The notes beneath the pieces were generated by a model. That model was not told where the DNA came from, did not search any database, and worked only from the letters and a program-made list of their open reading frames with translations. DNA of 44,399 nt, from the NCBI GenBank assembly GCA_964509615.1, contig CAZDXZ010000005.1:1-44399 (forward strand), read 5' to 3'. Origin of the DNA: an uncultured Dehalococcoidales bacterium (GTDB taxonomy: Bacteria; Chloroflexota; Dehalococcoidia; GIF9; UBA5629). Below are positions 1 to 25,723 of this stretch, in pieces (the stretch's first letter is position 1; every line of letters starts with the position of its first letter). Both the position numbers and the translations under genes were made by a program.

Positions 1-1885
<1,885 letters not shown>

Positions 1886-11036: not shown

Positions 11037-11054
11037 GCCTTGCGGCAGATCTCT

Positions 11055-12824
11055 TCAGACCTTTGTGTAGAAACCGTGGGGATCGAATAGTCTGACCATC
11101 ATCTTTTCCTCATACGATGGAAGTTCGATCTTCTCCAGACGCGGCGCCACCTCCAGCTCCCAGCCCACCATGCGTTTTATGCCCCTGATAGCCTCGTCCT
11201 CCCTGATGGCCGTCCCGTAGGGTATATAAGAGGTCAGCACCAGCGTATCCTTGCCTTCGGGCTTCTCGAAGATGCCCACATCCGTGACCAGCGTCCTGAC
11301 ATTTTTACCCGGATAGGTTATATATGAAACATCCTTGATCAGCCTCTCCCTGCCGGCGGGGGCAAATGCTATGGTTTCGCGGCAGGAGCTGACCACGTCG
11401 TTGGCGCCGCCCGACCCGACGATGTAATAAACGTGGGGTATCTTGGTGGAGTTGCCGTTGCCGTGCCGGTCGATCTGGGCCGCGCCGAGGACCCCCAGGC
11501 AGTTGTTGCCCGCGCCTCCGGCCAGGACGCCCAGGGCTGTCTCAATATTGGAGAGCATCTTACAGGAATACAGGTTGTGCATGCTGAAGCCCGTGGGGTC
11601 CGAGGGCACCGGCATATAGCCGTACATGCCATTCTCCGCCACCAGCTCTGCATCGTACTTCATGCCTTTCAGCCGGTAGACCGCCATCCAGGCGGCGAGC
11701 TGCGCAAGCCCCACTCCGGCCAGCAAGGTCCTGTAGCCCTTTGTCTGACAGAGTCTGGCTATATGCCTGCTGCCCGCTATGACCATCCTTTCAAGCTGGT
11801 TTGATTCCTTCTGGAACTCTATGCCGGGCACGGCCGCCAGGGTCTCCACGACCCACGAGTGAGGCTTGGCCTTGTCCTTGAGGTAACGCAGCCTATCTTT
11901 GCCGATCTTGTCAAGATATTGCTTGTGGTCCTTACAGTTGAGTATCCACTCCCGGATAAATCCCATGAAGCGCGTTTCATCCATGGAGGCATCCCGGATA
12001 ATGGTGGCGAATTCGTAGTCATCGAAATAGCCTTCGTATTGCGGTATACCGCAGTTGGGCAGGCCTCCGGGATGGGCCCCGTAAGGCACCTCGCAAACGG
12101 CTTTCACCATATAGGCCGGTATGCGGACGAGGTGAGCATGGCTGCGAATATAATCGGTAGGGACAATATGTTCCGCGCTGACGATCACAGCGTGCCTGGC
12201 TGCCCAGGCGCCGAAGGCGTCTATTCCCAGCGGGTAGGGCAATATGGTGTTCCCTGAGCGGTCCGCAGCCAGGCCGTGCACAAACGTGACATCCGGCCTC
12301 AGCGCCCTGAGCAGGCCGGTCTGGCCGCCGCCGAAGGGGGAATCGATGACGCTGAAATCGTTCTTGTTCTCCTCCGCCATGGTGCTGCCGATGAGGGAGC
12401 GTGTGGGTATAAATTCCCAGCCCATGGCGCCCGCCAGCAGGCGCTGCGTGATAGTCAGCATGGTCCAGTTCTCAAACTCCACCGCGCCCGATATGTAGGC
12501 TTTCTGAACCAGCGGATTGGGCCCGGGAGTGGGGTAGGTGTTCCCGGCAAAGCTGGTGACGGCCTTCTTCATCAGTCCCCCGCGGATAAGCGCCAGCAGC
12601 AGGGCTGATACGTAGGGGCTGATAATGGTGAAATCTCCCTTTTTGCCCCAGAACTCACGCACCAGCTGATAAAAAAGAGCACCGCTCCTGCCTGCGAAAT
12701 GTATGGACATGCCGGGACTGACATGATCTCTGACAGCCGCCTCCAGCGAGCAGGTCTTATCTTCCCCTTCGATGGGCGGCAGCTGAAATTTCGTATCGAT
12801 AAAGGCTTTTAATTCATCGTCCAT
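11055..12824 (-). CDS. Family I CoA-transferase, fused alpha+beta (glutaconate CoA-transferase-like)
   Basis: Alpha part: LAGAMG..F.PTRSLIGS, LRPDV, ADRSGN, GAHP. Beta part: AENG (catalytic Glu position), LGAAQIDRHGNGNS, GSGGAND, VTDVG. Confidence 0.82.
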   Translation of the reverse strand: MDDELKAFIDTKFQLPPIEGEDKTCSLEAAVRDHVSPGMSIHFAGRSGALFYQLVREFWGKKGDFTIISPYVSALLLALIRGGLMKKAVTSFAGNTYPTPGPNPLVQKAYISGAVEFENWTMLTITQRLLAGAMGWEFIPTRSLIGSTMAEENKNDFSVIDSPFGGGQTGLLRALRPDVTFVHGLAADRSGNTILPYPLGIDAFGAWAARHAVIVSAEHIVPTDYIRSHAHLVRIPAYMVKAVCEVPYGAHPGGLPNCGIPQYEGYFDDYEFATIIRDASMDETRFMGFIREWILNCKDHKQYLDKIGKDRLRYLKDKAKPHSWVVETLAAVPGIEFQKESNQLERMVIAGSRHIARLCQTKGYRTLLAGVGLAQLAAWMAVYRLKGMKYDAELVAENGMYGYMPVPSDPTGFSMHNLYSCKMLSNIETALGVLAGGAGNNCLGVLGAAQIDRHGNGNSTKIPHVYYIVGSGGANDVVSSCRETIAFAPAGRERLIKDVSYITYPGKNVRTLVTDVGIFEKPEGKDTLVLTSYIPYGTAIREDEAIRGIKRMVGWELEVAPRLEKIELPSYEEKMMVRLFDPHGFYTKV

Positions 12825-12842
12825 GCTTAATAACCGGTGAGC

Positions 12843-13256
12843 CTATACCCTGTAGCATATGTCGGGCAGCTTCACACCCGGGTTGGCTTCTCTGACATAG
12901 CGCAATAGCTGGTTGGCCAGGGATACAGTGATGGTGGCGAGCTCATCACCCCTGACCATCCTAATCTTATCACCGCTGTAAAGCGCTCTCAGCCTGGCGG
13001 GGAATTCGTCATCCGATCTGTTAAATACTAAATGAATTTTTACACCCGGGAATACCTCTTTGCACACCGCCCAATCCTCGCCAATACCGGGCTTCACAAC
13101 ATGCCCTCCCAGATAAGCTGCCAGCGCCTCAACGTCCTTGACGTATTCAAGGGGCGCAGCCCGCAGCTTCAGAGCTCCTTTCACCTGCAGCTGGTGGGGG
13201 CTGGTCTTGCCCTCAATGTCCGCCAGGCCGAGCAGCCGGCCGTTCTTATCTTCCAT
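12843..13256 (-). CDS. DUF3786-like protein
   Basis: FPGVKIHLVF..SDDEFPA resembles the FPxVP...DEEFPA pattern of DUF3786, a family often found near acetyl-CoA synthase/corrinoid genes. Confidence 0.6.
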   Translation of the reverse strand: MEDKNGRLLGLADIEGKTSPHQLQVKGALKLRAAPLEYVKDVEALAAYLGGHVVKPGIGEDWAVCKEVFPGVKIHLVFNRSDDEFPARLRALYSGDKIRMVRGDELATITVSLANQLLRYVREANPGVKLPDICYRV

Positions 13257-13333
13257 GCCCTTTATATGCTGTTTCAGATTTAATACAGTATCACAGAAGG
13301 ACGACTCATCTGCAATAAGCCTGATGCGAAGCT

Positions 13334-14095
13334 CTAACGAACCTTCAGCCGGAAGAGTATTTCCTGCACTGCCCGGCGAAAACCTGAATCCAGCGGCAGC
13401 GCCGTAAGCGGCTTGCCTTTCACATCCAGGTCGGAGATATTGGGGTCCTCCGGAATGGTGGCAAAGAGCATCAGCCCCGATTTGTCCACGGCCTGTTTGA
13501 ATTCCTCCGGCAGCCCGTTGCGCAGGCGGTTGACAACCAACAGGACGCCACCCTTGATATTGGTGCGTATCTCTTTGCTCAGCTCCTGCAGCCGTATGCA
13601 GGTGTTGAGTCCGCGCATGGTCGGATCGGTCACCGCCAGCAGAAAATCTATATCCTGGGTCGTCTGCCGGCTGATATGCTCGAGTCCCGCCTCGCAGTCC
13701 ATGACCACGTAGTCGTAACTTTTAGCCAGCTTGTCGATGGAGAAGCGTATCATGTGGTTGGCTGCGCAGTAGCAGCCCGGCCCCTCCGGGCGCCCCATGG
13801 CCAGCAGGTCGAACCGGTCCGTCTCAACCAGGGACTCGTGTATGCGGGCGTCCAGAATCTCCTGTTTAGATACGGCCATGGTCAGGCGGCCGGCCTTGAC
13901 CTCGTCGGTCATCTTCTCGCGCGTCCTGCCCACCGTCCCGCTCACATCCACGCCCAGGGCGTCGTTGAGGTTAGTGCTGGGATCAGCGTCAACCGCCAGC
14001 ACCGCACCCTTGCTGGAAAGGAAATCGACCAGTATGGCCGAGATGGCGGTCTTGCCCACGCCGCCCTTTCCGGCGACAGCGATCGTTACGGTCAT
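13334..14095 (-). CDS. cooC: CooC/AcsF nickel-insertion ATPase
   Basis: IAVAGKGGVGKT, VDADP, GPGCYC (Ni-binding CxC), DCEAGLEH. Confidence 0.92.
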   Translation of the reverse strand: MTVTIAVAGKGGVGKTAISAILVDFLSSKGAVLAVDADPSTNLNDALGVDVSGTVGRTREKMTDEVKAGRLTMAVSKQEILDARIHESLVETDRFDLLAMGRPEGPGCYCAANHMIRFSIDKLAKSYDYVVMDCEAGLEHISRQTTQDIDFLLAVTDPTMRGLNTCIRLQELSKEIRTNIKGGVLLVVNRLRNGLPEEFKQAVDKSGLMLFATIPEDPNISDLDVKGKPLTALPLDSGFRRAVQEILFRLKVR

Positions 14096-14098
14096 GCT

Positions 14099-16009
14099 TC
14101 AGATCTCCTTTGTATCCGGCCTGGTACGCCGGTCGGCAGGCACGAGGCTGATCGGCGAAAGCCTTATCACCGCATTATACTCCGCGGGACAGACCAGCTC
14201 ACAACTGCCGCACTTGGTGCACTTGAGCTGGTCAACGACTTTAAGGCCTTTCTCATCGCTGAAGACGGCCTCGGCCGGACAGGCCAGCACGCAGTGATCG
14301 CAGCCCCTGTAACACTTCTCGGGCAGGATGTAATAAGCCGTGAGCTCCTTGCAGACGCGGGCCGGGCAGCGCTTTTCAAGGACATGGGCCTCATATTCCG
14401 CCCGGAAGTACCGTATCGTGGTCAGCACGGGGTTGGGCGACATCCTGCCCAGCCCGCACAGTGCGCCTTCCTTCAGGTCTGCGGCCAGCTCGACCAGCGC
14501 CCCGATCGATTCAGCCGACCCCTTGCCCCGCGTGACATCTTCCAGCACCGAGTGCATATGATAAGTGCCGATGCGGCAGAACGTGCACTTCCCGCAGGAC
14601 TCCTGACGGCTGAAATCCACAAAATATTTAGCCGTATCCACCATGCAGTTGTCCTCATCCATGACGATCACTCCGCCCGAGCCCATGATAGCGCCGGCTT
14701 CCCTCAGGGAATCGAAATCTATCTGCGTGTCCAGCAGACTTTCCGGCAGGCAGCCCCCCGACGGTCCCCCGATCTGCACGGCCTTGAATTGCCTGCCGCG
14801 TTTAATGCCGCCTCCTATATCGTAAACCAGCGTGCGCAGCGAGGTCCCCATGGGCACCTCGGCCAGGCCCGTGTTCTCGAGTTTGCCGGCCAGCGCAAAG
14901 AGCGCCGTGCCGGGGCTGCCGGCCGTGCCCGTATCCCGGAACCGGCGCCATCCCTTTTGCAGAATGGCGGAAACATTGGCCAGTGTCTTAACATTGTTCA
15001 CCAGCGTCGGCCTGCCGTACAGTCCGGCCTGCGCCGGATAGGGTGGGCGGTGCTCGGGCCAGGAACGTCCTCCCTGCATGGCTGCTATCATAGCCGTCTC
15101 CTCCCCGGAGACAAACGCCCCCGCGCCCCTGACCATCTCGATCGTAAAGCTGAACTCCGAATCCAGTATGCGCCTGCCCAGCAGGCCTGCGGCCCGCGCC
15201 TGTTTGAGTGCGATCCTGATCCTCTCTATGGCCAGCGGATACTCCTCTCTGATATAGATATACCCTTTCTTTGCACCCACCGCGCGGCTGGCAATAATCA
15301 TCCCCTCCAGCACCGCGTGCGGATCGCTCTCCAGCAGGACACGGTCCATGAAGGCTCCGGGGTCGCCCTCGTCAGCGTTGCAGATCACGTATTTAGTGTT
15401 GCCCTCCGCCCGGGCGCAGGCTGACCACTTGGCCGCCGTGGGATAACCTGCCCCGCCCAGGCCGCGCAGCCCGGATTTCTCAATCTCCTTTATTACCTGC
15501 CCGGGCTGCATCTCCAGCGCATTGGCCAGGCCCCGGTACCCTCCCGACGCGAGATAGTGTTCAATCTCAAGAGGGGATATGTAGCCGCAGCTGCGCAGCA
15601 GCACACGCGACTGATATTTAAAAATGTCGAGCTCCGGTATGTAAACCGCTTCACCGTTGCCCCCGGCCACCGTCCCCAGCGCCAGTTCAAGGCAGGGGTC
15701 GTCGCCCCGGACGTATCCCTCGACAAGCCGGGGCACGATGGCGGGAGTGGCGTGATGATAGCAGACGGAGAAATCACCCGGTTTGATAATTACCACGAGT
15801 GGCTCCTGGGAACACAGCCCCATACAGCCGACTTCCCATAACCGCACCCTGTCACCCAACCCCTCTATTTCGCGCCGGATAGCCTCCAGGACGGCCATTG
15901 AGCCGGCGGCGCGGCCGCAGGTAGCCGTCCCCACCAGAATGTGCGTGATTTTATCTGAATACGGCGGACCTGTCTTATTTTGAGAGAGAGTGCGGATGCT
16001 GCGTTTCAT
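14099..16009 (-). CDS. NuoF/HydB-like NADH- and FMN-binding Fe-S subunit (bifurcating-type architecture)
   Basis: N-terminal thioredoxin-like Fe-S domain (GTATCG...GCMGLC), GLRGLGGAGYPT, CNADEGDPGAFMDR, GAGAFVSGEETA, SCGKCTFCRIG, LCGLG, H..KRCPARVC, C-terminal 2x[4Fe-4S] ferredoxin. Confidence 0.92.
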   Translation of the reverse strand: MKRSIRTLSQNKTGPPYSDKITHILVGTATCGRAAGSMAVLEAIRREIEGLGDRVRLWEVGCMGLCSQEPLVVIIKPGDFSVCYHHATPAIVPRLVEGYVRGDDPCLELALGTVAGGNGEAVYIPELDIFKYQSRVLLRSCGYISPLEIEHYLASGGYRGLANALEMQPGQVIKEIEKSGLRGLGGAGYPTAAKWSACARAEGNTKYVICNADEGDPGAFMDRVLLESDPHAVLEGMIIASRAVGAKKGYIYIREEYPLAIERIRIALKQARAAGLLGRRILDSEFSFTIEMVRGAGAFVSGEETAMIAAMQGGRSWPEHRPPYPAQAGLYGRPTLVNNVKTLANVSAILQKGWRRFRDTGTAGSPGTALFALAGKLENTGLAEVPMGTSLRTLVYDIGGGIKRGRQFKAVQIGGPSGGCLPESLLDTQIDFDSLREAGAIMGSGGVIVMDEDNCMVDTAKYFVDFSRQESCGKCTFCRIGTYHMHSVLEDVTRGKGSAESIGALVELAADLKEGALCGLGRMSPNPVLTTIRYFRAEYEAHVLEKRCPARVCKELTAYYILPEKCYRGCDHCVLACPAEAVFSDEKGLKVVDQLKCTKCGSCELVCPAEYNAVIRLSPISLVPADRRTRPDTKEI

Positions 16010-16021
16010 CGGTGATCCGTA

Positions 16022-16471
16022 TTACCCTTCCGCTTCCGGCTCCGCCTTGATCTCCACCAGGGCCTGCTCCACTCCGGGCGGTGTCATTCTCGGGTAAACC
16101 TTGTTCTCAATTGTCACGACCGGCGCCAGCGCGCAGCAGCCGATACAGGCAACCCTTTCCAGGCTGAATTCGCGGCCCTCGCTGGTTTCTCCCACTTCGA
16201 TCTTCAGCTCGCGCGCCATGGCCTCCAGCACGAGCTGTCCGCCCGCCAGGTGGCAGGCCGTTCCCATGCACACCCTGACCGGCTTCCTGGCCGGTGGTGT
16301 GAAGCGGAACTGGTTATAGAAGGTGGCCACCCCCCACACGGTAGCCGAAGATATATTGAGCGATTTCGCGGCCTCGAGCATGGCTTGACTGGAGAGATAC
16401 CCTTCCCTGGACTGTATCTGCTGGAGGATATCTATGAGGTGGCGCGGTTGGCGGCGCGAATGGTAACCCAT
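16022..16471 (-). CDS. NuoE/HydC-like [2Fe-2S] subunit
   Basis: VATFYNQF, VCMGTACHL, ACIGCCALAPV; ATG at 16471 overlaps the acsC stop (TGATG). Confidence 0.9.
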   Translation of the reverse strand: MGYHSRRQPRHLIDILQQIQSREGYLSSQAMLEAAKSLNISSATVWGVATFYNQFRFTPPARKPVRVCMGTACHLAGGQLVLEAMARELKIEVGETSEGREFSLERVACIGCCALAPVVTIENKVYPRMTPPGVEQALVEIKAEPEAEG

Positions 16472-17838
16472 CACCCTTTCCAGCTTTTGACCAGTCCGGG
16501 CAGATATGCGGGTATTTCATTGGCATCGCCCGGCCCTACGATTATCTCCCAGTCGGGCAGGGCCTCGGTGAGCTCGTTGCGGATGCGGGCCACTTTGCCG
16601 GGAATAACCAGGCGGCGGTGTTTGACCATCCCTTCCACGCCGCATTTCCTGATGAATGGGGCTATGCTGTCGCCGCCGAACTTGCCGGCAGCCCAGGCCG
16701 TGAGCACACCCAGCCCACCCGTCTCCTTGACGCACAGCCAGGAAGGCACCTTGCTGGCCTCGATCTCCGATGCCACTATGAAGTACGTCAGCGCCCAGTT
16801 GGTCGTTACCAACACGGGCGAGGCAGAGTCAGGATCGTTAATGGGATAAACTTTTTCCTCCATGGACATGGGCATGCGGGGATCGGTATATATGTTCAGC
16901 CTCTGCACCAGCAGGGGCAGCAGTGTATGCTCGTCGATATCCGAGAGAACGATGATTCCCGCGTACTTGGGTATGTACATGGCCGCCAGCATCATTTCAC
17001 GACTTTTATCCGCAGTCATGAAGCAGGGAAAGGCAACCGTTGGATATCCCAGCAGCCGGAAGCCCTGCTTGAGCGCCGCCCTGCGGATAAGAGTCTGATC
17101 TCGTAAGGCGGACTGCATGTCCTTCGAGCCGGGGTCCAGCACGACGTCCTCTATGCCTGCATCCCGCAGGCGCGTGGCGATCGGCACCAGCGATTCAACG
17201 CCGGCAGCCCTGACGGCTATGGGCGCGGGCCTTGCTTTAACTGCGTTGATTATTTTGTCCAGGTTGTGCACAGTAACCGGATAGAGCAGCGGCCGCCTGT
17301 CCGCACACATTTCATGCGCGGCCAGCAGGGCATCGCTGTCTTCGTTGATCAATATCAGCGGGCAGTCCACTGCGGAAAGAGCCTTCTTTACCAGGCCGGC
17401 GAACCTGTTGCGGTCGCCCGATTTGCACTGCAGCGCCAGCAGGTCCGCCCTGAGAGTTTTGCCCACCCAGCTGTACTGAAGGTCTTTCAGCTTTTTGATC
17501 TTCTCGTCAACAACTTTGTCGGGAAGGTCATCCGAGACCAGCACGGCGATGCCCGGCTGATGAACGAAGGTCTTCTCATGACGATAGAGGACGGTCTCAT
17601 CGCCGATTACCAGGGCGCCGGCTCCGGTGCCTATGGTAACCGGCCGGATGGGCGGCGCCAGCGCGTCCTCTAGCTCGCTCCTGACCTCCGCGGCAAGATA
17701 GGAGCACTTATCGATGGCAATGCCGCCGGAAGCCAGCTTCATGGCGAAAGCGAAGCATGTGGGCAGGCCGCATTCCTTGCAGTTCTTCTTGCCGCCCTCA
17801 GGCAGGCGCTTGACTATATCCGTACCTTTGATCGCCAA
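16471..17838 (-). CDS. acsC: Corrinoid iron-sulfur protein large subunit (AcsC/CdhE)
   Basis: NCKECGLPTCFAFA...KC [4Fe-4S] motif, RHEKTF, NIYTDP, VLVTTNWALTYF, VLTAWAAGKF; TTG start. Confidence 0.95.
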   Translation of the reverse strand: MAIKGTDIVKRLPEGGKKNCKECGLPTCFAFAMKLASGGIAIDKCSYLAAEVRSELEDALAPPIRPVTIGTGAGALVIGDETVLYRHEKTFVHQPGIAVLVSDDLPDKVVDEKIKKLKDLQYSWVGKTLRADLLALQCKSGDRNRFAGLVKKALSAVDCPLILINEDSDALLAAHEMCADRRPLLYPVTVHNLDKIINAVKARPAPIAVRAAGVESLVPIATRLRDAGIEDVVLDPGSKDMQSALRDQTLIRRAALKQGFRLLGYPTVAFPCFMTADKSREMMLAAMYIPKYAGIIVLSDIDEHTLLPLLVQRLNIYTDPRMPMSMEEKVYPINDPDSASPVLVTTNWALTYFIVASEIEASKVPSWLCVKETGGLGVLTAWAAGKFGGDSIAPFIRKCGVEGMVKHRRLVIPGKVARIRNELTEALPDWEIIVGPGDANEIPAYLPGLVKSWKG

Positions 17839-17849
17839 AGTATTCTCCT

Positions 17850-19079
17850 TTAATCAGGTAGTTTAACCTCGCCCCTGACCCAGGGATGCCCTGCGCGGTC
17901 GAGGAAGGCCGCCAGCTCTTCAACGCCGGCAACATCGTTCTCCGTAGCTATTTTGCCCTGAAGGTCCATGGGGCAGGCGTCCCGGTACATCTCCTGTATG
18001 ACGCGCGGCATCCAGACGATGCGGTACCATCCGCCATCAGCCTTGAGAAAGCTGGGGGAGCGCAGGTACTCCAGGGCAATGCCCAGAAAGCCCTCTACCT
18101 GCCTTCCTCCGCTGGTGTCTCCGGCCATGGTGGTGAATGATGCGCCCGACACGGTATCCCCCTCGAAATCGCGGTTAACGATACCGAAGGCATCAACCTC
18201 AGGTATGTAAAAGCAGATCGCCTGGAAACACCCGCATGAAGTATGCGGATAGCCGAAGGCGCTGTGTAAAAAGACCCTGTCGTAGGCGCCCATGGACTTC
18301 TCCAGCGCCAGCTTATCGGCGCCGCTGTATTCGCCCCGCACCGCATCGATGATGTCACCCTTGACCACGGCCTGTATCGGCCCCTCCGGGTCCATCTGGT
18401 AGGCTGCCTTGCCGTCGAACCAGTTGATGGCGCCGCAGTTGGCGATGCGCTCCGGCGTTATGCAGCAGATATGGGTGGGGGCGAAGCTCTGGCAGAGGGC
18501 GCAGCTGTAGAATTCCTGCACATCGGCCTCGCGCAGGCCCCTGATTTTCTCATCGCGCGCACGGTAAACGCTTACGGCCCCGGGTAGAAGCGCCTCAACC
18601 TTCTTGGGATCGGTGACAAAGGTGACCTGTATCTTCTCGATGATCTCTATCTCCGATGTATAAAGGAATATCAGTATCTCTCCCAGTATCCTGAGCGACT
18701 TCAGCCCTTTGTTATAGGAGGCCTTATTGAGCCGCATCCAGACGTCCTGGCGCTGGTTCATATGATAAAAGCCTTCGATGTAGTTCAGGTAAAGGTGCAG
18801 CCGCCGTTCCAGGACAGCCTCTATGTCCTTTTCCAGGCGGGCGCCGGCGACGTCCACCAGCACGGCCACCGGCTGGCTGCTGCCCTCTTCCATATCGGGG
18901 AGGTCCGGGCCGATTACCTCCACCTTCTCATGTGTTATCTCTTCGGGTTTCCTGATGGAGACCAGCTCGAACTTGTTTTTTACATTGGGCCCACCCAGCT
19001 CCACGCGTATATCCGCCTTGCGGATAACCTCTCCCTCATACTGGGGACCGATATCGACCGGGAATGTTCCGTCAGCCAT
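17850..19079 (-). CDS. cdhC: Acetyl-CoA synthase, archaeal-type short beta subunit (CdhC/AcsB)
   Basis: FPVDIGPQYEGEVIRK N-terminus; A-cluster ligands SCALCQSFAPTHIC...NCG and PHTSCGCF intact; 409 aa with no bacterial N-terminal domain. Confidence 0.93.
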   Translation of the reverse strand: MADGTFPVDIGPQYEGEVIRKADIRVELGGPNVKNKFELVSIRKPEEITHEKVEVIGPDLPDMEEGSSQPVAVLVDVAGARLEKDIEAVLERRLHLYLNYIEGFYHMNQRQDVWMRLNKASYNKGLKSLRILGEILIFLYTSEIEIIEKIQVTFVTDPKKVEALLPGAVSVYRARDEKIRGLREADVQEFYSCALCQSFAPTHICCITPERIANCGAINWFDGKAAYQMDPEGPIQAVVKGDIIDAVRGEYSGADKLALEKSMGAYDRVFLHSAFGYPHTSCGCFQAICFYIPEVDAFGIVNRDFEGDTVSGASFTTMAGDTSGGRQVEGFLGIALEYLRSPSFLKADGGWYRIVWMPRVIQEMYRDACPMDLQGKIATENDVAGVEELAAFLDRAGHPWVRGEVKLPD

Positions 19080-19172
19080 AGAATCTCCGCCTTCGCTTAT
19101 TAATCATCGCCGCCGTTTGGTTTAATATTATAGCCGCACACACCCGGCTTATCCTAATATACCCGGCCGGTG

Positions 19173-21260
19173 TTAATGTACGACTTCTTCCAGCGTGACC
19201 TGAGAGGGATAGGTGCCGACCAGGGTGGGCAGAGACAGCACGGGTTTCTCGCTCCAGCCGACCCCGTTCAAATAGGCCTGCAATTCCTTTTTGAAGAAAA
19301 TGGGTATATCAGAGCTCTTCCTGACAAACAGGTGGACATCGTCCGGCAGCTTTCCGAAATACTGCTTGTGCAGGCCGATATAGTGTGTAAGCTTGGTAGC
19401 CCTGCCCTGGGGTGTATCGTTCCTGCGCATGCACAGCTTGGCCAGCGCCACGACAGCCGAACCCCTGTCGGGCAAAAGGTTGATCAGATGCTGGGGTGAA
19501 GGCTCCCCTGTATCCACGAGCTTCTTTTCGCGGCCGTCCATCACGCTCCAGTCTGTCTCACCTTCCCTGCTCAAATAGAGCCGGCCATACCGGATGCAGC
19601 GTGGGCCGACCACGACGGGTATGCCCAGGCGGTTACAACCGGTGGCCAGGGCCAGCTCATCGGCGCCGTTGGCGCCCCAGGCCAGCGCGCAGGCCCCCAC
19701 CCGGTTGAGTATGTAATCAGCCACAACCTCGTAGTTGGCTCTCAACGGCAGGGCGGCAAAGATGTTGGCTATTTTTATGGCCGCGCCGCTGATATGCGAC
19801 GCCGAGACGCCGGAGCCTATATTGATCACACCTCCGGCATCGAAATCGGCGGGATACCTTTCATAGATGGACTTCCCCTCGGCGTCTGTTTTAAGGGCCG
19901 CAGCAATAGCGGAATCCCCGGCCAGCGCGACCACGTACTTGCGCTTTGCGAATTCCTCGGCCACATCCGCTATATCATCGGGCGAACCGGGATAGTTCGA
20001 TCCCCCAACGATGGCGATGACACCCGGTATAGTCCCCAGCACCAGCGGCGCCCCCACCTTCCTTATCTCGGTATCCATGACCGGCCCGCGGCCTACCCTC
20101 ATCCTGCCCTTTCCCCGGTAAAAATCATCTCCCGCCGGCAGGGCCTTCTTGCGGCCGGCCGAAAGCTTCAGGGCCGCCTCCACAGCCACTGCGGCGGCCT
20201 TCACGGGGTCGGGCAGCAGAATGCCCCGTCCCCGCTGCAGCTCCACCAGGACCTGCTCGGTATCTCTGGCTGATTGGTCGTCCAGTCCGTAAGAGGCCAG
20301 CTCATCGGTGGCAATGAAGGCGGCGCCCCCGGCTATGGCCAGATCTGCTACGTCGGAAAGCAGGTTGTTGCCGCCGCACATTACCACATCCACCAGCCCC
20401 GCCCTTAAAATGGCCGGCAGCATAGCCTGAGTCCCGGCTATCCCGGCGGCGGGGTAATAGCGCACCAGGTCATGGGCCACCGCTCCGATGCCCAGTACCG
20501 CCACTTTCCCCTCCATCCCGCTGTCCCTGAGGTAGTCGGCCAGGCAGACGGCTGCCAGCGTATCGTTACCCGTAATCAATATGACAGGTCCGTTTAAATC
20601 CACCTCCGCCCAACCTACCTTTACCAGGGCGGTGTCGCCGGTGGAGCAGGGAAAGCCGAATCCCGAAATAGCGGCCAGCTCTGTCGCCTCCATAGCAACC
20701 TGGGCCAGCATCGAGGCGTGCATGGACCTGGACTCCAGGTCTATTGACGCCGTTTCCAATCCGGGAGCGGAAGAAGCCAGCAGCAGGGCAAGCTGTTCCT
20801 CGACATAACATAAAATGCTTTCCAGGTCGCCTAACAGAGTTGGTTTGAAGCCCAATACCGTGCGCATGTGGGGCGCTTCGATGCCGACCCTTTCGCCAAG
20901 GTCGAGCGGCATATCCCTGCCCTTGCGGTCCACCAGATAATCAATGGTCCGGCGCGCCTGCGCCAGGGACTGGGCCAGGCCTTCGCAGCAGGCGCCCAGG
21001 GTGAGGCAGGCCCGCATAGCCGCAGTGTCAGCGCCGCAGGCGCCTTTTCTGCCCTCAGTGAGGTCGCATTCCCCGTAGGTGCAGAGGCCGCATTTGTCGG
21101 CTACCGGCACGTGAAAGGGCTTCCATGTCCTGAAAAGCCTGTGGTCCCAGTTTCTCAGCTCCGCGATCCCGGGCAGAGGCGTATGCCCGACTGGCTCCCA
21201 GCCGTCCTCGGCCCTGATGAACTCATCCGCCTCCCGTTTCTGCCTCTCGTTTCTCACCAC
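19173..21260 (-). CDS. cdhA: Archaeal-type CO dehydrogenase alpha subunit homolog (CdhA), predicted catalytically inactive
   Basis: WEPVGHTPLPGIAELRNWD, CxxCTYGxCDL...GACG, GRGPV.D.EIR.VGAPLVLGTIPG, YILNRVGAC..AWGA, AKLCMR.NDT..GR..KLTHY. The C-cluster ligands are substituted (see findings). Confidence 0.88.
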   Translation of the reverse strand: MVRNERQKREADEFIRAEDGWEPVGHTPLPGIAELRNWDHRLFRTWKPFHVPVADKCGLCTYGECDLTEGRKGACGADTAAMRACLTLGACCEGLAQSLAQARRTIDYLVDRKGRDMPLDLGERVGIEAPHMRTVLGFKPTLLGDLESILCYVEEQLALLLASSAPGLETASIDLESRSMHASMLAQVAMEATELAAISGFGFPCSTGDTALVKVGWAEVDLNGPVILITGNDTLAAVCLADYLRDSGMEGKVAVLGIGAVAHDLVRYYPAAGIAGTQAMLPAILRAGLVDVVMCGGNNLLSDVADLAIAGGAAFIATDELASYGLDDQSARDTEQVLVELQRGRGILLPDPVKAAAVAVEAALKLSAGRKKALPAGDDFYRGKGRMRVGRGPVMDTEIRKVGAPLVLGTIPGVIAIVGGSNYPGSPDDIADVAEEFAKRKYVVALAGDSAIAAALKTDAEGKSIYERYPADFDAGGVINIGSGVSASHISGAAIKIANIFAALPLRANYEVVADYILNRVGACALAWGANGADELALATGCNRLGIPVVVGPRCIRYGRLYLSREGETDWSVMDGREKKLVDTGEPSPQHLINLLPDRGSAVVALAKLCMRRNDTPQGRATKLTHYIGLHKQYFGKLPDDVHLFVRKSSDIPIFFKKELQAYLNGVGWSEKPVLSLPTLVGTYPSQVTLEEVVH

Positions 21261-21269
21261 GCGAGCCTC

Positions 21270-22175
21270 CTATATCTTGCCCTCGATCGCTTCCTTAAGT
21301 AACCGGCAGTTTTCCGGATGCCTGAGCACCAGTATATCCGCGCCGGCCATAAGCAGGCTCAGGGCGGTAATGCTCTCCCAGAGCAAGCCCTGCTCGCCAT
21401 TTGAGCGGGCCTGGTTGGTCTTCCAGCACTCGCGGCCCAGGTCGGCAATAACAGGCATCTGCATGGCCACGTCACCATATACAACACCTACCTGCCTGGT
21501 TCGCTCCATGATGGTGAAGCTGTACTCCATCCCGTAACCCAGCGCCGAGCTGAGCGGGTCGATGACTATTCGTTCCGGAGGGAGCTGCTTGAGCAATTTC
21601 ACATTGAGTTCCTTCTCAAGATTGATATCTATGGGGGTCTGGGCAATGATGCAGTGCCCGTTGTCGGCCACCGCCTTCAGTATAGCCTCGTAATTCTCCT
21701 TGACGGCCGGGCCCAACAGCAGATTATTTTCTTTGCAGGCCTCCGCAACGGCCGTCAGCACCTCGACATCCTTCTTATCATCCCCGCAGCCGTATACTAT
21801 CAAAGGCGCATCCAGTTCCCGGGACATCCGTTTGACCAGCGCAGCCGCCTCCGCCGGTGCTTTGTTCGCGCCGTTGGGATCGGTGCCCTCCAGGTGCAGG
21901 CAAACCAGGTCCGCGCCCAGCTTCAAACAGAGAGCGCCCCACTTGACCGGGTCATCGACCACATGCCTGAAAGGTTCCACGGCGGCCCCGGCCCAACCGG
22001 CGGCCCCATTATCGTCCACCTCGAGCGCCACCACCGGCCTGTTGGCGGCGCTGCCTTCGAAATGGTGCAGGGGCAGTATATTGCTGCCCCCGATCTTTAC
22101 GCTTTTCCCGCCACTGCCAAGGGTGATCTCTTTGACCCTGCCCGTATACTTTTCCAGAGGCGCTTTATATTCCAT
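21270..22175 (-). CDS. acsD: Corrinoid iron-sulfur protein small subunit (AcsD/CdhD)
   Basis: YTGRVKEITLG, KIGG..ILP, TPIDINL.KELN, IDP...ALGYGMEYS, GADILVLRHP. Confidence 0.93.
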   Translation of the reverse strand: MEYKAPLEKYTGRVKEITLGSGGKSVKIGGSNILPLHHFEGSAANRPVVALEVDDNGAAGWAGAAVEPFRHVVDDPVKWGALCLKLGADLVCLHLEGTDPNGANKAPAEAAALVKRMSRELDAPLIVYGCGDDKKDVEVLTAVAEACKENNLLLGPAVKENYEAILKAVADNGHCIIAQTPIDINLEKELNVKLLKQLPPERIVIDPLSSALGYGMEYSFTIMERTRQVGVVYGDVAMQMPVIADLGRECWKTNQARSNGEQGLLWESITALSLLMAGADILVLRHPENCRLLKEAIEGKI

Positions 22176-22189
22176 AAGGATTTCCTCGA

Positions 22190-23068
22190 CTAACTCTCCA
22201 GCCAGGCGTGCGAATAAAGCGCATCCCCCATCAATACCCTGGCTGTTTTCACATAATTCTTTTCACTCTCGGGCAGCACATCGGCGTCGACCGGTTCTCC
22301 ATCCATTACCCTGTGGATAAGCACCCTTATATCGTTCAGCGAGCCCCGGTTGAGGTCAATCAATTCCTGATCGAGGACGTCTGCAATAGCGGAGTAAAGT
22401 CCGTTTCTTTCCAGCATAACCATATAAGTGCGGTTAAGTATGCCGCGCAGAGGAGCGGGTGTGCCGTTGGATACATTTGAAAGGCCGACCACCGATTTCA
22501 CGCCCGGCAGCAGGTCGGGCAAGATGCGGATGAATTCCAGCGCCTCGCGCACTTGTTTCTGGTCGGCGCTGACGGGCAGTACTATCGGGTCCACCCAGAT
22601 ATCCTCGTTATCGATGCCCAGGCCGTTAGCATAGGCCACCGTCTCCATGATGCTCTCGACCCTGGAATCGACATCGGGCGGGCAGCCCTGGTCAGTGATA
22701 ACCGAGATAACCACCTGGGTGTGGTATTTTACCGCCTGCGGCATCATCCTTTCCCTGCTTTCAGTTTTGCCCGACGCCGAGTTCAGCAGGGCGCGCCTCC
22801 GGCACAGCTTCAATCCCGCCTCCATGGCCAGGGGATTCATCGTATCCAGGGATATAGGCAGGTCGCTTACCGCCTGTACGGCATTTACCAGCCACGAGGC
22901 CACCTCTTCGGGATCTTTACGCGCCGGGCCCAGGTTCAGGTCGAGATAGTCGGCGCCGGCCCGCGCCTGCGCCCTGGCCAGCTCCTGTATGGGCACAATA
23001 TCCCTGTTCCTGACAGCCTCGCTGATTACCTTGGCTATGATATGGATGTTTTCGCCTATTAAGATCAT
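22190..23068 (-). CDS. acsE: Methyltetrahydrofolate:corrinoid Fe-S protein methyltransferase (AcsE, pterin-binding)
   Basis: MILIGENI, GADYLDLNLG, SLDT, LLNS, IWVDP, GLSNVS; first gene of the ACS cluster. Confidence 0.88.
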   Translation of the reverse strand: MILIGENIHIIAKVISEAVRNRDIVPIQELARAQARAGADYLDLNLGPARKDPEEVASWLVNAVQAVSDLPISLDTMNPLAMEAGLKLCRRRALLNSASGKTESRERMMPQAVKYHTQVVISVITDQGCPPDVDSRVESIMETVAYANGLGIDNEDIWVDPIVLPVSADQKQVREALEFIRILPDLLPGVKSVVGLSNVSNGTPAPLRGILNRTYMVMLERNGLYSAIADVLDQELIDLNRGSLNDIRVLIHRVMDGEPVDADVLPESEKNYVKTARVLMGDALYSHAWLES

Positions 23069-23098
23069 GATCTATGCGATGGAAATGAAATTACGTGA

Positions 23099-23128
23099 AT
23101 TCTAACATCGATTATATTGGGTCGGCAA
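23099..23128 (-). promoter_or_regulatory. Putative sigma70 promoter of the acsE-acsD-cdhA operon
   Basis: Minus strand TTGCCG-N18-TAGAAT with an extended -10 TG (TGtTAGAAT). Confidence 0.45.
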
Positions 23129-23176
23129 GGCAATGCCGGCCGCCCGTACAGGTTCAAAATAACGTATAATTGTTGC

Positions 23177-23635
23177 ATGTCTGCTATAGACAAGATCCTC
23201 ATCCATTGCGACGGCGCCTGCTCGGGCAACCAGTACCGCTGCAATGTAGGCGGGTGGGGCGCCGTGCTGCAGCAGGACAGCCGAACAAAAGAGATATACG
23301 GCGGAGAGAAGAACACCACCAACCAGCGCATGGAGCTGACCGCCTGCATCAAGGCGTTGGAACAGATCAAGTCGAAGAAGTATACGGTGGAGGTCTACAC
23401 GGACAGCGCCTACCTGGCCAATTGCATGCAAAGAAAATGGTACGCGACCTGGCAAAAGAACGGCTGGCACAACGCCGCCAGGAAACCTGTGGAGAACCGC
23501 GACCTGTGGAAACGGCTCCTTTCCCTGACCTCTTTATATAAGGTTAAATTCATTAAGGTGGCGGGACATTCCGGAAACAAACTGAACGAGCGGGCGGATG
23601 AGCTCGCCCGCCAGGGTATCCGCGATGCCGGATAA
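23177..23635 (+). CDS. rnhA: Ribonuclease HI
   Basis: CDGACSGN, GGWG, TTNQRMEL, YTDSAY, PVENRDLW, KVAGHSG...NERADELA; ATG 23177 preferred over the ORF-track start 23117. Confidence 0.95.
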   Translation: MSAIDKILIHCDGACSGNQYRCNVGGWGAVLQQDSRTKEIYGGEKNTTNQRMELTACIKALEQIKSKKYTVEVYTDSAYLANCMQRKWYATWQKNGWHNAARKPVENRDLWKRLLSLTSLYKVKFIKVAGHSGNKLNERADELARQGIRDAG

Positions 23636-23669
23636 GCTATCGCAGCCTGATGCATTTCAAATCAGGATA

Positions 23670-23736
23670 TGCTATACTATTCTCTGAAATTGCAACTCCT
23701 TGTGTGCCTAGCTTGAGCAAACACAATATATTGTGA
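23670..23736 (+). promoter_or_regulatory. gyrB promoter (extended -10) followed by tandem NrdR-like boxes
   Basis: TGcTATACT at 23670-23678; ACACAATATATTGTGA at 23721-23736; weaker TTGCAACTCCTTGTGT at 23690-23705, 31 bp upstream. Confidence 0.65.
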
Positions 23737-23803
23737 TGCTTATCTTAATGCCTCGCTTGCCGGGGGATTTTGGACGGGCGATATTCAGTGTGAGAGATAA
23801 ACC

Positions 23804-25723
<1,920 letters not shown>

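Follow-up and report, generated by a model that had tools for sequence, protein, structure and literature searches.

Does an acetyl-CoA synthase (ACS) gene cluster that still includes a carbon monoxide dehydrogenase (CODH) subunit attest to a carbonyl branch of the Wood-Ljungdahl pathway if the catalytic metal ligands of that subunit are gone? The question is raised by a locus at positions 11055-23068 of the window, namely the whole stretch of 44,399 nucleotides analysed here.

Gene content of the locus

Ten tightly packed genes, delimited by ORF coordinates and identified with Pfam and NCBIfam, lie on the minus strand; the run of co-directional, closely spaced genes listed in the initial annotation was recovered whole and with the same limits. 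In gene order, the gaps calculated from the coordinates are 14, 9, 93, 11, -4, 12, 3, 77 and 18 bp, and the cluster is bordered by two plus-strand genes, mutL (9408-11036) and gyrB (23804-25723). It is headed, as are related clusters, by acsE (22190..23068, 292 aa; NF005719, 223.9 bits; Pterin_bind, 72 bits), the methyl-THF:corrinoid/Fe-S protein methyltransferase gene, whose orthologues are 58-93% identical. There follow cdhD/acsD for the corrinoid Fe-S protein small subunit (21270..22175, 301 aa; NF003376, 331.2 bits against a cut-off of 280; PF03599), the CODH alpha subunit gene cdhA, cdhC, cdhE, a nuoE/nuoF-like pair, cooC, a DUF3786 gene and a CoA-transferase gene. The short DUF3786 protein (12843..13256, 137 aa) yields a PF12654 match of 31.7 bits only, confined to the final 72 positions of the 176-position profile; its orthologues occur alike in clusters with a ligand-less CdhA (hereafter dead-type) and in canonical ones, with a full-length 220-aa form in locus L082. 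The acetyl-CoA synthetase expected some 9 kb away proved to be an AMP-forming enzyme (2..1885, minus strand; ACAS_N, AMP-binding and AMP-binding_C domains), possibly linked, the gene of which lies 9.2 kb from the cluster and runs off the window. The order acs-mutL-CoA-transferase recurs in a related locus (L155).

A CODH alpha subunit without C-cluster ligands

The cdhA product (19173..21260, minus strand, 695 aa) was characterised by alignment to PDB 8riu and 9c0q, ligand columns, a tree, dN/dS and Foldseek, the top matches of the latter being CdhA structures (TM 0.69). Its TIGR00314 score of 695.5 is under the cut-off of 781.3. The His and Cys columns of the C-cluster, filled by Cys or His in 70/70 canonical relatives, now read N232, G259, A260, N299, G420, D449 and G484; two of the six B/D-cluster Cys, again Cys in 70/70 canonical relatives, are replaced by A54 and G58; and the E/F ferredoxin insert of ~70 residues is deleted. 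Departure from the 70 canonical sequences at every C-cluster column is common to 34 short and 12 mid-length homologues, and the ligand-loss pattern recurs in 22/80 fetched loci. The motif C57, C60, C65, C75 is invariant (46/46 homologues, 22/22 loci), and one [4Fe-4S] cluster may persist on it. A column comparison of dead with canonical sequences found no Cys gained specifically in the dead clade; residues fixed solely there, beside former ligand positions, are D233, H263 and D449, and also E535, W46, Y423 and D429. The initial description of this cdhA as dead is thus borne out: judged by its residues, a CODH alpha subunit has turned pseudo-enzyme, from which the C-cluster ligands, the D cluster and the E/F insert are all missing.

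Dead it may be, yet by its sequence it is not a pseudogene, because the dead-type proteins form a single clade (22 rows, SH-aLRT 100), nested inside canonical Dehalococcoidia CdhA, because the median dN/dS is 0.113 (11 pairs) versus 0.032 in canonical CdhA (10 pairs), and because the C-terminal half is the best conserved (dN/dS 0.061 and 70% identity to canonical CdhA, against 0.128 and 43% for the N-terminal half), in particular residues 383-695. The dead form was found in six genera, that is, in 24/151 sampled genomes. In archaeal complexes, CdhA is described as contacting CdhC through Rossmann domain 2, which replaces the bacterial A1, and through its C-terminal domain (preprint 10.64898/2026.07.07.736967, as far as its account of the interface goes); the half of dead-type CdhA under the strongest constraint is therefore the half that docks ACS in those complexes. 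From this docking role and this constraint, dead-type CdhA may be regarded as a cluster-poor partner that docks and gates ACS in trans; its retention would be explained by the lack of an A1 domain in the two-domain CdhC. Binding between dead-type CdhA and CdhC is accordingly a prediction, drawn from conservation and from archaeal structures.

Search for a working CODH

No Prismane-family protein with the canonical CC motif was found in the 22/22 Dehalococcoidia genomes that encode dead-type CdhA, which are for the most part fragmented MAGs (the window's own being 86% complete) but include one closed chromosome (G003); in a control bin, two real CODHs do show CC. Dead-type CdhA is the sole Prismane-family protein in 10/22 of these genomes, the closed chromosome included, while the remaining 12/22 additionally carry an unlinked CooS-V-type gene with the motif NIE[TA]GQ, in all 12 of which Glu stands for Cys295. 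The window's own genome belongs here, with a cooS on another contig (C57) that reads NIETGQ, Glu occupying the place where true CODHs have CC, and whose best PDB match is 7b7q. According to PMC13240472, which cites Jeoung 2022 on this point, the CooS-V type catalyses neither CO oxidation nor CO2 reduction. Form-I CoxL was not found either, the best match giving 275 bits versus a cut-off of 991. An intact CODH elsewhere in the genome, named at the outset as the finding that would overturn the idea of an ACS without working CODH partner, has therefore not turned up in any of the 22 genomes.

Intact partner subunits

The two-domain ACS encoded by cdhC (17850..19079, minus strand, 409 aa; TIGR00316, 554.8 bits, cut-off 356) keeps the A-cluster Cys C193, C196, C205, C215, C282 and C284 in 18/18 dead-type and 34/34 canonical clusters, in agreement with its having been called intact. 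The corrinoid Fe-S protein large subunit, encoded by cdhE/acsC (16471..17838, minus strand, 455 aa; NF003195, 552.8 bits; PF04060 Fe-S domain), has 6/6 conserved Cys columns. The cooC/acsF-like P-loop nickel-insertion ATPase (13334..14095, minus strand, 253 aa; CbiA and AAA_31 matches) retains the C108-x-C110 columns, as in canonical clusters, with a dN/dS of 0.067. All ten genes are intact, and dN/dS across 7-11 pairs is 0.05-0.13.

The flavin module is made up of a nuoE/HydC-like [2Fe-2S] protein (16022..16474, minus strand, 150 aa; PF01257, 147 bits), with 5/5 Cys columns kept and a 4-bp overlap with cdhE, and a nuoF/HydB-like flavoprotein (14099..16009, minus strand, 636 aa), with 22/23. 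The latter comprises an N-terminal domain and a C-terminal 2x[4Fe-4S] domain and is matched over its full length by 9bov_B, 9n5u_B (NfnB), 7q4v_B and 8a6t_B (HydB), at E about 1e-170 to 1e-203; its identity as a complex-I NuoF was rejected on these PDB matches in favour of a HydB/Bfu-type B subunit. The co-occurrence check did not uphold the earlier proposal that an NADH flavin module marks the CODH-less state: nuoE and nuoF follow cdhE in 31/44 canonical bacterial loci as well, so that NuoEF does not set the dead form apart. The pair is under purifying selection (dN/dS 0.12-0.13), maintained though nothing in the model favoured below requires it, which is a point against that model.

Accompanying losses, gains and the methyl branch

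The loss of ligands goes along with other losses. The epsilon subunit gene cdhB is found in 0/22 dead-type versus 56/58 canonical loci, and genome-wide none was found in G000-G003; the DUF166 accessory gene is gone from dead-type clusters; and Fdh-alpha exceeds the cut-off in 0/12 dead-type against 12/12 canonical same-family genomes, hand-picked for completeness. All these losses map to one stem branch and hence count as one evolutionary event rather than as independent replicates.

Conversely, the fused alpha/beta family-I CoA-transferase (11055..12824, minus strand, 589 aa; PF01144 in two stretches) adjoins 14/22 dead-type but 0/44 canonical bacterial loci. Its best PDB match is glutaconate CoA-transferase 1poi, and Glu is at position 397 (AENG), in a column kept in 12/13 orthologues. 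The association with the dead state is close but not strict, since two genomes with canonical CdhA (G041 and G049) have an orthologue, at 76-83%.

As to the methyl branch, G000-G003 all encode FTHFS and MTHFR, and FolD adjoins Fhs in G001-G004. The window's own genus encodes 2-6 small MtaC-like corrinoid proteins per genome (5/5 genomes), together with a stand-alone MetH-type homocysteine domain; such corrinoid proteins were found in 0/7 genomes of other dead-type genera. Those of the window's genus could supply methyl groups for synthesis, a point against cleavage as discussed next.

A probable truncated pathway and its possible direction

The locus is probably a truncated Wood-Ljungdahl module and not a CODH/ACS, with dead-type CdhA as docking partner and with interconversion of free CO. 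The reaction would be acetyl-CoA + THF <-> methyl-THF + CoA + free CO, the CO not undergoing intracellular oxidation; as Fhs, FolD and MetF are encoded but Fdh is not, both the formate end and the CO end of the pathway would be left open. Read from their genes, a group of uncultured Dehalococcoidia most likely exchanges free CO. Net cleavage of acetyl-CoA is the direction predicted here, at evenly balanced confidence: with the linked CoA-transferase or Acs as the putative activator of acetate, splitting of acetyl-CoA would supply C1 units to the folate pool, and CO would escape to neighbouring cells, as in D. mccartyi. The presence of MetF and AcsE weakens the cleavage reading, for cleavage is then not needed to obtain methyl-THF, unlike in D. 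mccartyi; the Dehalococcoides logic of the initial annotation (no MetF, no AcsE) is likewise inapplicable, given that the cluster encodes AcsE and the genome MTHFR and FTHFS.

It is conceivable, at a tentative level, that the same anatomy works in the synthetic direction, methyl groups from formate (via Fhs/FolD/MetF) or from methylated substrates (via corrinoid methyltransferases) being carbonylated with external CO from the environment or from neighbours, and acetyl-CoA going to biomass or its thioester being passed on by the CoA-transferase. This would amount to a way of scavenging C1 units or of disposing of electrons for which neither CODH nor Fdh is required. All of AcsE, MetF, Fhs and FolD are retained, the window's genus has its corrinoid proteins and MetH-type domain, and synthesis of acetyl-CoA is exergonic at standard conditions (an estimate from textbook values), all of which count in its favour; yet the other dead-type genera are without such corrinoid proteins, environmental CO is scarce, the cluster contains no CO-uptake or CO-sensing gene, and the linked CoA-transferase and nearby Acs suit acetate activation at least equally.

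An unlikely reading gives dead-type CdhA a new job beyond that of a scaffold, either as an electron relay, from the Bfu-type NuoEF to ACS or CoFeSP for reductive activation via the retained four-Cys cluster, or as the carrier of a new small-molecule or metal site, remodelled from the former C-cluster pocket. The invariance of the four Cys, the dead-clade-only residues beside former ligands, an intact NuoEF though CO oxidation is gone, and a search that found no RACo in the closed genome G003 would fit; but the short form is without any of the E/F insert through which electrons usually leave, RACo does occur in G000-G002, and polar replacements may merely fill an empty pocket. That the carbonyl branch is normal, with CO fed to ACS by a CODH missed in incomplete MAGs or by a working CooS-V type, is very improbable: the cooS-family genes and the fragmentation of most genomes leave room for it, but Glu at the Cys295 position is that of a class reported inactive with CO and CO2, ten genomes, one of them closed, have no second Prismane-family gene, and the docking site of CooS-type enzymes is the A1 domain of AcsB, a domain that CdhC does not have. 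Strongly disfavoured is the view of the cluster as a now functionless remnant, decaying after loss of the Wood-Ljungdahl pathway; CODH, cdhB, DUF166 and Fdh are indeed lost, as is the whole cluster in some relatives (in one genus, g4, 2/3 genomes are without cdhA and cdhC), but the ten genes are intact at low dN/dS, the dead form persists in six genera, and all other subunits retain their metal ligands.

Comparison with known systems

The incomplete Wood-Ljungdahl pathway of Dehalococcoides mccartyi was reportedly described by Zhuang and colleagues in 2014. It belongs to the same class as the dead-type group and, like it, has ACS, the corrinoid Fe-S protein and CooC but no CODH, has Fhs and FolD but no formate dehydrogenase, and has free CO as expected co-product; AcsE and MetF are present in the dead-type group only. 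As summarised by Deobald et al. 2020 (PMC7005905), D. mccartyi is without acsE, metF and metE/metH, its methyl group being thought to pass to core-MetE. In the order of the window's bacterium, one genus (g31) has a D. mccartyi-like cluster (cooC, acsB, acsD, acsC), in which no acsE, cdhA remnant, NuoEF, DUF3786 or CoA-transferase was found; its three-domain AcsB (733-736 aa) is only 39-41% identical to the window's ACS. The suggestion of an independent route is supported: by sequence, the D. mccartyi-like and dead-type states arose independently.

The canonical bacterial Cdh-type ('hybrid') CODH/ACS clusters of Chloroflexota and Thermodesulfobacteriota are said to have been treated by Adam and colleagues in 2018. 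They share the order acsE-cdhD-cdhA-...-cdhC-cdhE-nuoE-nuoF-cooC-DUF3786, with proteins 47-73% identical, but in them CdhA has its full ligand set and the E/F insert, cdhB is present, and cdhA and cdhC are often separated by DUF166; their genomes have a selenocysteine Fdh and their clusters no adjoining CoA-transferase. The bacterial CdhC clade is a subject of preprint 10.64898/2026.07.07.736967. Also comparable are the bacterial clade-A CdhA variants of Ni-CODH groups A-4 and A-6 (Inoue et al. 2019, PMC6344411), which likewise have incomplete active-site motifs, no D cluster and a place in ACS gene clusters; as listed there, only His and the first Cys are changed, Cys2-5 and the E/F clusters being kept. 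Set against these descriptions, dead-type CdhA differs in that all C-cluster ligands are replaced and in that its short form is without the insert. From their NCBI accession prefixes, the dead-clade sequences are taken to be recent deposits, which would post-date the Inoue et al. 2019 survey.

The F420-reducing CODH of Ca. Ethanoperedens (PDB 8riu, the best structural match) is a CdhA-type enzyme encoded beside a dedicated flavin module gene, as here, and the NuoF-like protein of the window is a full-length B subunit of the Bfu/HydABC family (PDB 7q4v, 8a6t, 9n5u). No BfuA/NuoG-like subunit was found in Dehalococcoidia clusters, a 213-aa NuoG N-terminal-like gene occurring only in those of Thermodesulfobacteriota; and, unlike in such CODH wiring, the flavin module here persists without any CO-oxidising site. 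The A1 (prismane-like) domain of bacterial AcsB is cluster-less, CODH-related and supports ACS, and dead-type CdhA would represent the same solution in trans; A1, however, forms part of the ACS polypeptide and binds an active CODH, whereas dead-type CdhA is a full-length subunit in its own right and has no active CODH to bind.

Finally, CooS-V of Carboxydothermus hydrogenoformans (PDB 7b7q; Jeoung 2022, as reported in PMC13240472) is likewise a CODH scaffold without CO/CO2 chemistry, though with one ligand changed and a hybrid Fe/S/O cluster held, while dead-type CdhA has lost every C-cluster ligand. CooS-V is a precedent for wrong CODH annotation, a pitfall foreseen for the present locus and encountered, as dead-type proteins are called ACDS/CODH alpha subunit in their sources; a complete ACS cluster with a conserved but ligand-less CODH subunit thus leads to bacteria being wrongly scored as CO2 fixers.

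Organisation of the cluster

The ten genes occupy 11055-23068 on the minus strand and, by Pfam and NCBIfam matches, run in the order acsE, cdhD, cdhA-like, cdhC, cdhE, nuoE-like, nuoF-like, cooC, a short DUF3786 gene and a fused CoA-transferase. The co-directional and tightly spaced arrangement described in the initial annotation is confirmed, successive spacings being 14, 9, 93, 11, -4, 12, 3, 77 and 18 bp, and the acetyl-CoA synthetase that it placed about 9 kb away is an AMP-forming acs at 9.2 kb from the cluster. The flanks are mutL and gyrB. The window forms contig C5 of a metagenome-assembled genome of 2.04 Mb (G000; 255 contigs, 86% complete, 2.9% contamination), its closest relatives belonging to Dehalococcoidia, Dehalococcoidales or Chloroflexota. 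A consensus scan of 10800-24000 found 7 promoter-like and 10 terminator-like sites; as 6.3 and 9.6 are expected, this is not above chance. One -35/-10-like site from that scan, whose total is at chance level, lies at 23128-23099 (minus strand), immediately upstream of acsE.

The acetyl-CoA synthase (ACS, here CdhC), the corrinoid Fe-S protein (CoFeSP, here CdhD and CdhE) and AcsE are intact. CdhE (NF003195, 552.8 bits) and CdhD (NF003376, 331.2 bits) both exceed their cut-offs, the large subunit bearing the N-terminal Fe-S domain PF04060, and AcsE scores 223.9 bits, under the NF005719 cut-off of 259. Conserved Cys are retained at 6/6 columns in CdhE, 22/23 in the NuoF-like and 5/5 in the NuoE-like protein, and CooC keeps its CxC. 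CdhC had been read as intact, and so it is: it matches TIGR00316 at 554.8 bits (cut-off 356) and carries six A-cluster Cys (Cx2Cx8Cx9C plus CGC), which are conserved in 18/18 dead-type clusters, that is, those with a ligand-less CdhA, and in 34/34 canonical clusters, in which the ligands are kept. In the dead clade, CdhC carries three additional conserved Cys (C206 and C289 in 18/18, C369 in 17/18) at positions that in canonical CdhC are mostly aliphatic (C206, C369) or mostly Trp (C289); C206 and C289 adjoin A-cluster ligands, which suggests a possible remodelling around the A-cluster.

A CODH alpha subunit without its metal ligands

The product of the third gene (19173-21260, 695 aa) is homologous over its whole length to CdhA, the alpha subunit of CO dehydrogenase (CODH), its matches including the archaeal chains 8riu_A (E=2.9e-165), 9c0q and 3cf4. 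It had been called dead from the sequence, and alignment of the ligand columns agrees, the C-cluster, two of the six B/D Cys and the E/F insert all being missing. The window's CdhA was aligned with 120 database homologues, and a column counted as a ligand column where 90% or more of 70 canonical proteins (about 768 aa) have Cys or His. The assignment of columns to clusters relies on the motif order of Carboxydothermus hydrogenoformans CODH-II (ChCODH-II). A second basis for it is the table of motifs (Table 2) given by Inoue et al. 2019 (PMC6344411).

At the His/Cys columns of the C-cluster, where one His and five Cys are expected and where 70/70 canonical relatives have His or Cys, the window's protein carries N232, G259, A260, N299, G420, D449 and G484. 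It keeps C57, C60, C65 and C75 of the six B/D-cluster Cys, the other two being replaced by A54 and G58, and its E/F columns are empty, the ferredoxin insert of about 85 residues that bears the E and F clusters in solved archaeal chains being deleted. The same losses are found in 34 short (about 695 aa) and 12 mid-length (about 764 aa) homologues; the four remaining Cys are invariant in all 46, and the mid form retains about half of the E/F cysteines. No newly gained Cys specific to the dead clade was found in CdhA. Six other residues (W46, D233, H263, Y423, D429 and E535) are fixed in the dead clade only (65-67 of 67), and D449, in the column equivalent to Cys476, occurs in 43/46; the polar residues D233, H263 and D449 border former C-cluster ligand positions.

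The AlphaFold model of the protein has a pLDDT of 66.7 and a pTM of 0.66, being poor in the invariant C-terminal half and low in residues 492-597. In a Foldseek search with this model, whose pTM is only 0.66, CdhA structures rank first at a TM of 0.69 (8riu, 9c0s, 3cf4).

Descent, selection and distribution

A scan of one genome per species yielded 80 loci, which the ligand columns divide into 22 dead-type and 58 canonical, 14 of the latter archaeal. A maximum-likelihood tree was computed for 75 rows, with those shorter than 650 aa omitted and the archaeal rows as root; in it the dead type forms one clade (22/22 rows, SH-aLRT 100), on a long stem of 0.67 changes per column, nested inside canonical Dehalococcoidia CdhA. 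The short forms, without the E/F insert, are split in this tree, L013 and L015 standing apart from a 12-row short clade with mid forms branching in between, which means either two deletions of the insert or an error at that node, whose support is 89-90. The closest match to the window's cdhD-cdhA-cdhC (93-95% identity) lies on L004, a 3.8-kb contig in a bin labelled Desulfobaccales (G005), and since the contig is so short, a binning error is the most likely explanation.

CdhA of the dead type is conserved and under purifying selection, and is not a pseudogene. The median pairwise dN/dS over the whole protein is 0.113 in the dead type (11 pairs, range 0.064-0.159) and 0.032 in the canonical type (10 pairs); in the N-terminal half (residues 17-372) the values are 0.128 and 0.035, and in the C-terminal half (residues 383-695) 0.061 and 0.019. 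Identity between the window's protein and canonical CdhA is 43% in the N-terminal and 70% in the C-terminal half, the corresponding figures between two canonical loci, L017 and L082, being 71% and 81%. The other nine genes of dead-type clusters have dN/dS values of 0.05-0.13.

A sample of 151 genomes from the window's order contains 24 with the dead pattern, judged here by identity pattern and frame length rather than by ligand columns: 13 in the window's own genus (g1), six in g3, two in g13 and the remainder in g4, g6 and g33. One genome of the window's genus, with 8% contamination, has a canonical-like pattern. Carbon-cycle surveys in which cdhA, or 'CODH/ACS alpha', in Dehalococcoidia is counted as evidence of CO2 fixation or CO oxidation are wrong for at least six genera (24/151 genomes).

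Bacterial clade-A groups with partly incomplete motifs in ACS clusters, A-4 and A-6, are described in Inoue et al. 2019 (PMC6344411), and a 2026 survey states that all ligand mutants were dropped prior to analysis (PMC13240472). Surveys that filter on ligands in the manner set out in that text silently discard these proteins, so that none describes them (PMC13240472). A search of a limited set of papers turned up no account of a CdhA clade that is conserved yet fully ligand-less, members of which might be listed in the supplementary tables of Inoue 2019, nor of the co-loss of CdhA ligands with cdhB and formate dehydrogenase (Fdh). An ACS without CODH and a pseudo-enzyme subunit are both already known in kind.

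No recognisable CODH elsewhere in the genomes

An intact CODH encoded elsewhere would have undone the claim of an ACS without a working CODH. Prismane-family searches covered the 23 genomes with dead-type loci, including G005, which served as control through CODH-like genes of its own that show the canonical 'CC' motif. None of the 22 Dehalococcoidia genomes has a canonical CC-motif CODH, and the claim stands. In ten of them the dead-type CdhA is the sole family member, as on the closed 2.46-Mb chromosome of G003 (L037). The other 12 encode an additional CooS of 634-640 aa, of the CooS-V type with Glu replacing the canonical Cys, which reads NIE[TA]GQ in 12/12 cases, against CC[TS] in the control proteins. 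The copy of the window's genome (634 aa, 'NIETGQ'; L001:1345-3249, contig C57:1796-3700) matches PDB 7b7q at E=1.2e-202, and a gene for a 258-aa ferredoxin-like protein lies ahead of it. Enzymes of the CODH-V type, with Glu at position 295, are described as having an iron-oxo hybrid cluster and as neither oxidizing CO nor reducing CO2 (PMC13240472, citing Jeoung et al. 2022). A form-I CoxL, or Mo-type CODH, was also sought as a CO sink, and no match came near the TIGR02416 cut-off.

Genes lost and kept along with the ligands

The gene cdhB (PF02552, epsilon subunit) adjoins cdhA in 56/58 canonical loci and in 0/22 dead-type loci; it is absent genome-wide from the window's genome and three other dead-type genomes (G000-G003) and present in the canonical genome G004. 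DUF166, which lies between cdhA and cdhB in many canonical Dehalococcoidia loci, is missing from every dead-type locus. Canonical extras of the DUF166 and class II aldolase-like kind are seen at L017:12311-13009 and 18720-19379, the aldolase-like gene following nuoF.

Within the same family, an Fdh (TIGR01591) above the cut-off, in most cases with a TGA in frame, is encoded by 12/12 canonical and 0/12 dead-type genomes, the best match among the latter being 273 bits; the 24 genomes of this survey were hand-chosen for high completeness from the 151-genome sample. The methyl branch is retained: formyl-THF synthetase (FTHFS, Fhs) and methylene-THF reductase (MTHFR, MetF) are present in G000-G003, the latter at 286.7 bits in G000, and FolD adjoins Fhs in G001-G004. 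In G000, Fhs begins at base 10 of its contig, so that FolD was probably lost from the assembly. With CODH and Fdh absent and the methyl branch kept, the pathway is cut at both of its CO2-facing ends and its middle is retained. All the co-occurring changes fall on one stem branch and therefore represent one historical event, not independent replicates.

The main MetF (287 bits) stands beside a family III CoA-transferase in genomes of g3 and of the window's genus (L163:6050-8507, L164:5644-7770); neither metV nor hdr was found next to MetF, its only neighbours being that transferase and a two-component system. PFL-like glycyl-radical enzymes, with one to seven matches per dead-type genome and matches in most canonical relatives too, were considered as a discriminating source of formate and rejected, as they occur in both groups. 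PF01717, a methionine-synthase link as in Dehalococcoides mccartyi, was found in 0/5 genomes, and a stand-alone MetH Hcy domain (about 303 aa) only in G000-G002 among five. Small MtaC-like corrinoid proteins number 2-6 per genome in the window's genus and are missing from seven genomes of the other dead-type genera; in G000 the corrinoid proteins and the MetH-type domain are at C22:1688-1906, C3:28084-28293 and C114:3841-4698.

The NuoEF pair and the CoA-transferase

The NuoF-like protein has full-length matches to HydB and NfnB chains, and the NuoE-like protein (PF01257) is HydC-like; the cluster thus encodes two subunits of Bfu, the HydABC-type flavin-based electron-bifurcating family, namely a HydB-like B subunit bearing additional Fe-S domains at its N- and C-termini and a HydC-like C subunit. 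The NuoG-like A subunit, which in this family carries the catalytic site, was not found in the window's cluster or in the Dehalococcoidia loci. A 213-aa Fe-S protein resembling the NuoG N-terminus follows nuoF in Thermodesulfobacteriota clusters (L082:17896-18537).

The pairing of nuoEF with a ligand-less cdhA, proposed in the initial annotation, did not survive a check of co-occurrence: nuoE and nuoF follow cdhE in 18/22 dead-type loci and also in 31/44 canonical bacterial loci (Dehalococcoidia and Thermodesulfobacteriota), the loci without them mostly ending too early. Being common to dead-type and canonical clusters alike, the pair dates from the ancestral bacterial Cdh-type cluster and does not mark a CODH-less state. 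Notably, it is still intact where CO oxidation has been lost, and a Bfu-type flavoprotein that outlasts CO oxidation narrows the role of this widespread, unstudied module in canonical bacterial CODH/ACS clusters. On the closed chromosome the nuoF-like gene is in two frames (268 + 370 aa; L037:16952-18870), owing to a frameshift or to an error of long-read sequencing, and L036 has a partial match. That NuoEF replaces the ATP-dependent activator RACo is not supported as a general rule, since PF14574 occurs in G000-G002 and G004 and is missing from G003 alone.

The CoA-transferase has two CoA_trans domains (PF01144 twice) and a Glu, E397 in AENG, that is kept in 12/13 orthologues as AE[NI]G; in family I CoA-transferases the (S)ENG motif holds the catalytic Glu of the beta part. 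The gene is adjacent in 14/22 dead-type loci; among the other eight, six end too early and two, L008 and L014, are truly without it. It is adjacent in 0/44 canonical bacterial loci, 21 of which extend at least 9.9 kb downstream. Of 35 genomes with canonical CdhA, 19 yield no match at E<=1e-20. In about nine there is a paralogue of 58-60% identity, next to thiolase-like genes, and one of two such loci checked also has a DUF35-type gene; the remaining finds are orthologues of 76-83% in two genomes, G041 and G049. In G041, whose CdhA is sister to the dead clade, acs-mutL-CoA-transferase stand in the window's order at a contig end (L155, C72:1-7515), from which it follows that the transferase may have joined the cluster shortly before the death of CODH; L155 may represent such an intermediate stage or else a chimeric bin.

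Why a dead CdhA may be kept

According to a 2026 preprint on the Methanosarcina complex, CdhC attaches to CODH mainly by way of two parts of CdhA, its Rossmann domain 2 and its C-terminal domain. Rossmann domain 2 is said to occupy the place of A1 in bacterial AcsB and to perform its function, and bacterial CdhC of Chloroflexota and Thermodesulfobacteriota is described in the same source as having neither an A1 domain nor a C-terminal extension (10.64898/2026.07.07.736967). By alignment, residues 383-695 of the window's CdhA are the portion past the E/F insert, and from that position they probably comprise Rossmann domain 2 and the C-terminal domain. If residues 383-695 are the docking domains, the half with the lowest dN/dS, and so the most constrained, would be the one that docks ACS. 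The protein would then dock ACS, and would owe its survival to doing in trans what A1 does, as a partner that docks or gates ACS. A complex prediction of CdhC with residues 383-695 scored 0.00, with the fold of the partner uncertain and no controls, and weighs neither way. The clade offers a natural experiment on the service of CdhA to ACS other than CO production, and a hint as to why a two-domain CdhC cannot simply drop CODH, whereas the three-domain AcsB of Dehalococcoides could.

Direction of flux and comparison with Dehalococcoides

The module would interconvert acetyl-CoA with methyl-THF, CoA and free CO, and the direction is a matter of probabilities. Net cleavage of acetyl-CoA, with release of CO, I hold to be an even prospect: D. 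mccartyi provides the sole experimental precedent, the linked transferase of the acetate/3-ketoacid type and the nearby Acs fit an activation of acetate, and the loss of Fdh takes away CO2 as a source of C1 units. Low ambient CO, by an estimate from standard values, also favours this direction. Synthesis from methyl groups and CO is a possibility of somewhat lower standing, to which the complete methyl branch from formate and the MtaC-like corrinoid proteins of the window's genus lend weight. What probability remains falls to flux in both directions or in neither.

The absence of CODH and Fdh, with the middle of the pathway kept, points to a metabolism that trades in free CO and formate. A more elaborate joint reading, which I consider unlikely as a whole, would make the module a two-ended exchanger linking acetyl-CoA to imported or excreted formate and CO, with CO (together with formate) as an interspecies currency in peat, soil and lake sediment; the pocket of the dead CdhA (D233, H263, D449, E535) and its 4-Cys cluster would gate CO at the A-cluster and relay electrons from NuoEF, keeping A-cluster and corrinoid reduced. 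Such a relay would be needed in the exchanger because no internal oxidation of CO can reduce the A-cluster or the corrinoid.

In D. mccartyi, AcsB and AcsCD are reported to cleave acetyl-CoA with release of CO in an organism described as lacking acsE, metF, metE/metH and CODH (PMC7005905). The window resembles it in having ACS and CoFeSP without CODH, and differs in the AcsE of its cluster, in the MTHFR of its genome and in a CdhC of 409 aa. The rationale offered for D. mccartyi, in which ACS is the sole methyl route, is not applicable here, AcsE and MetF being present. A closer likeness to D. mccartyi is found in another genus of the same order, g31 (L168, L169), with two genomes of 1.2-1.4 Mb, 99-100% complete, whose compact cluster of cooC, a 733-736-aa ACS, acsD and acsC matches the published description; queries with the window's proteins found in g31 no acsE, cdhA, nuoEF, DUF3786 or CoA-transferase, and the ACS of g31 shares 39-41% identity with CdhC of the window. 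The suggestion of an independent route to the CODH-less state is upheld by this comparison, since the two clusters differ in ACS type and in the fate of CdhA: g31 has a three-domain AcsB and has shed the CODH gene entirely, whereas the window's lineage has a two-domain CdhC and has kept a dead CdhA, and the two CODH-less states are therefore independent.
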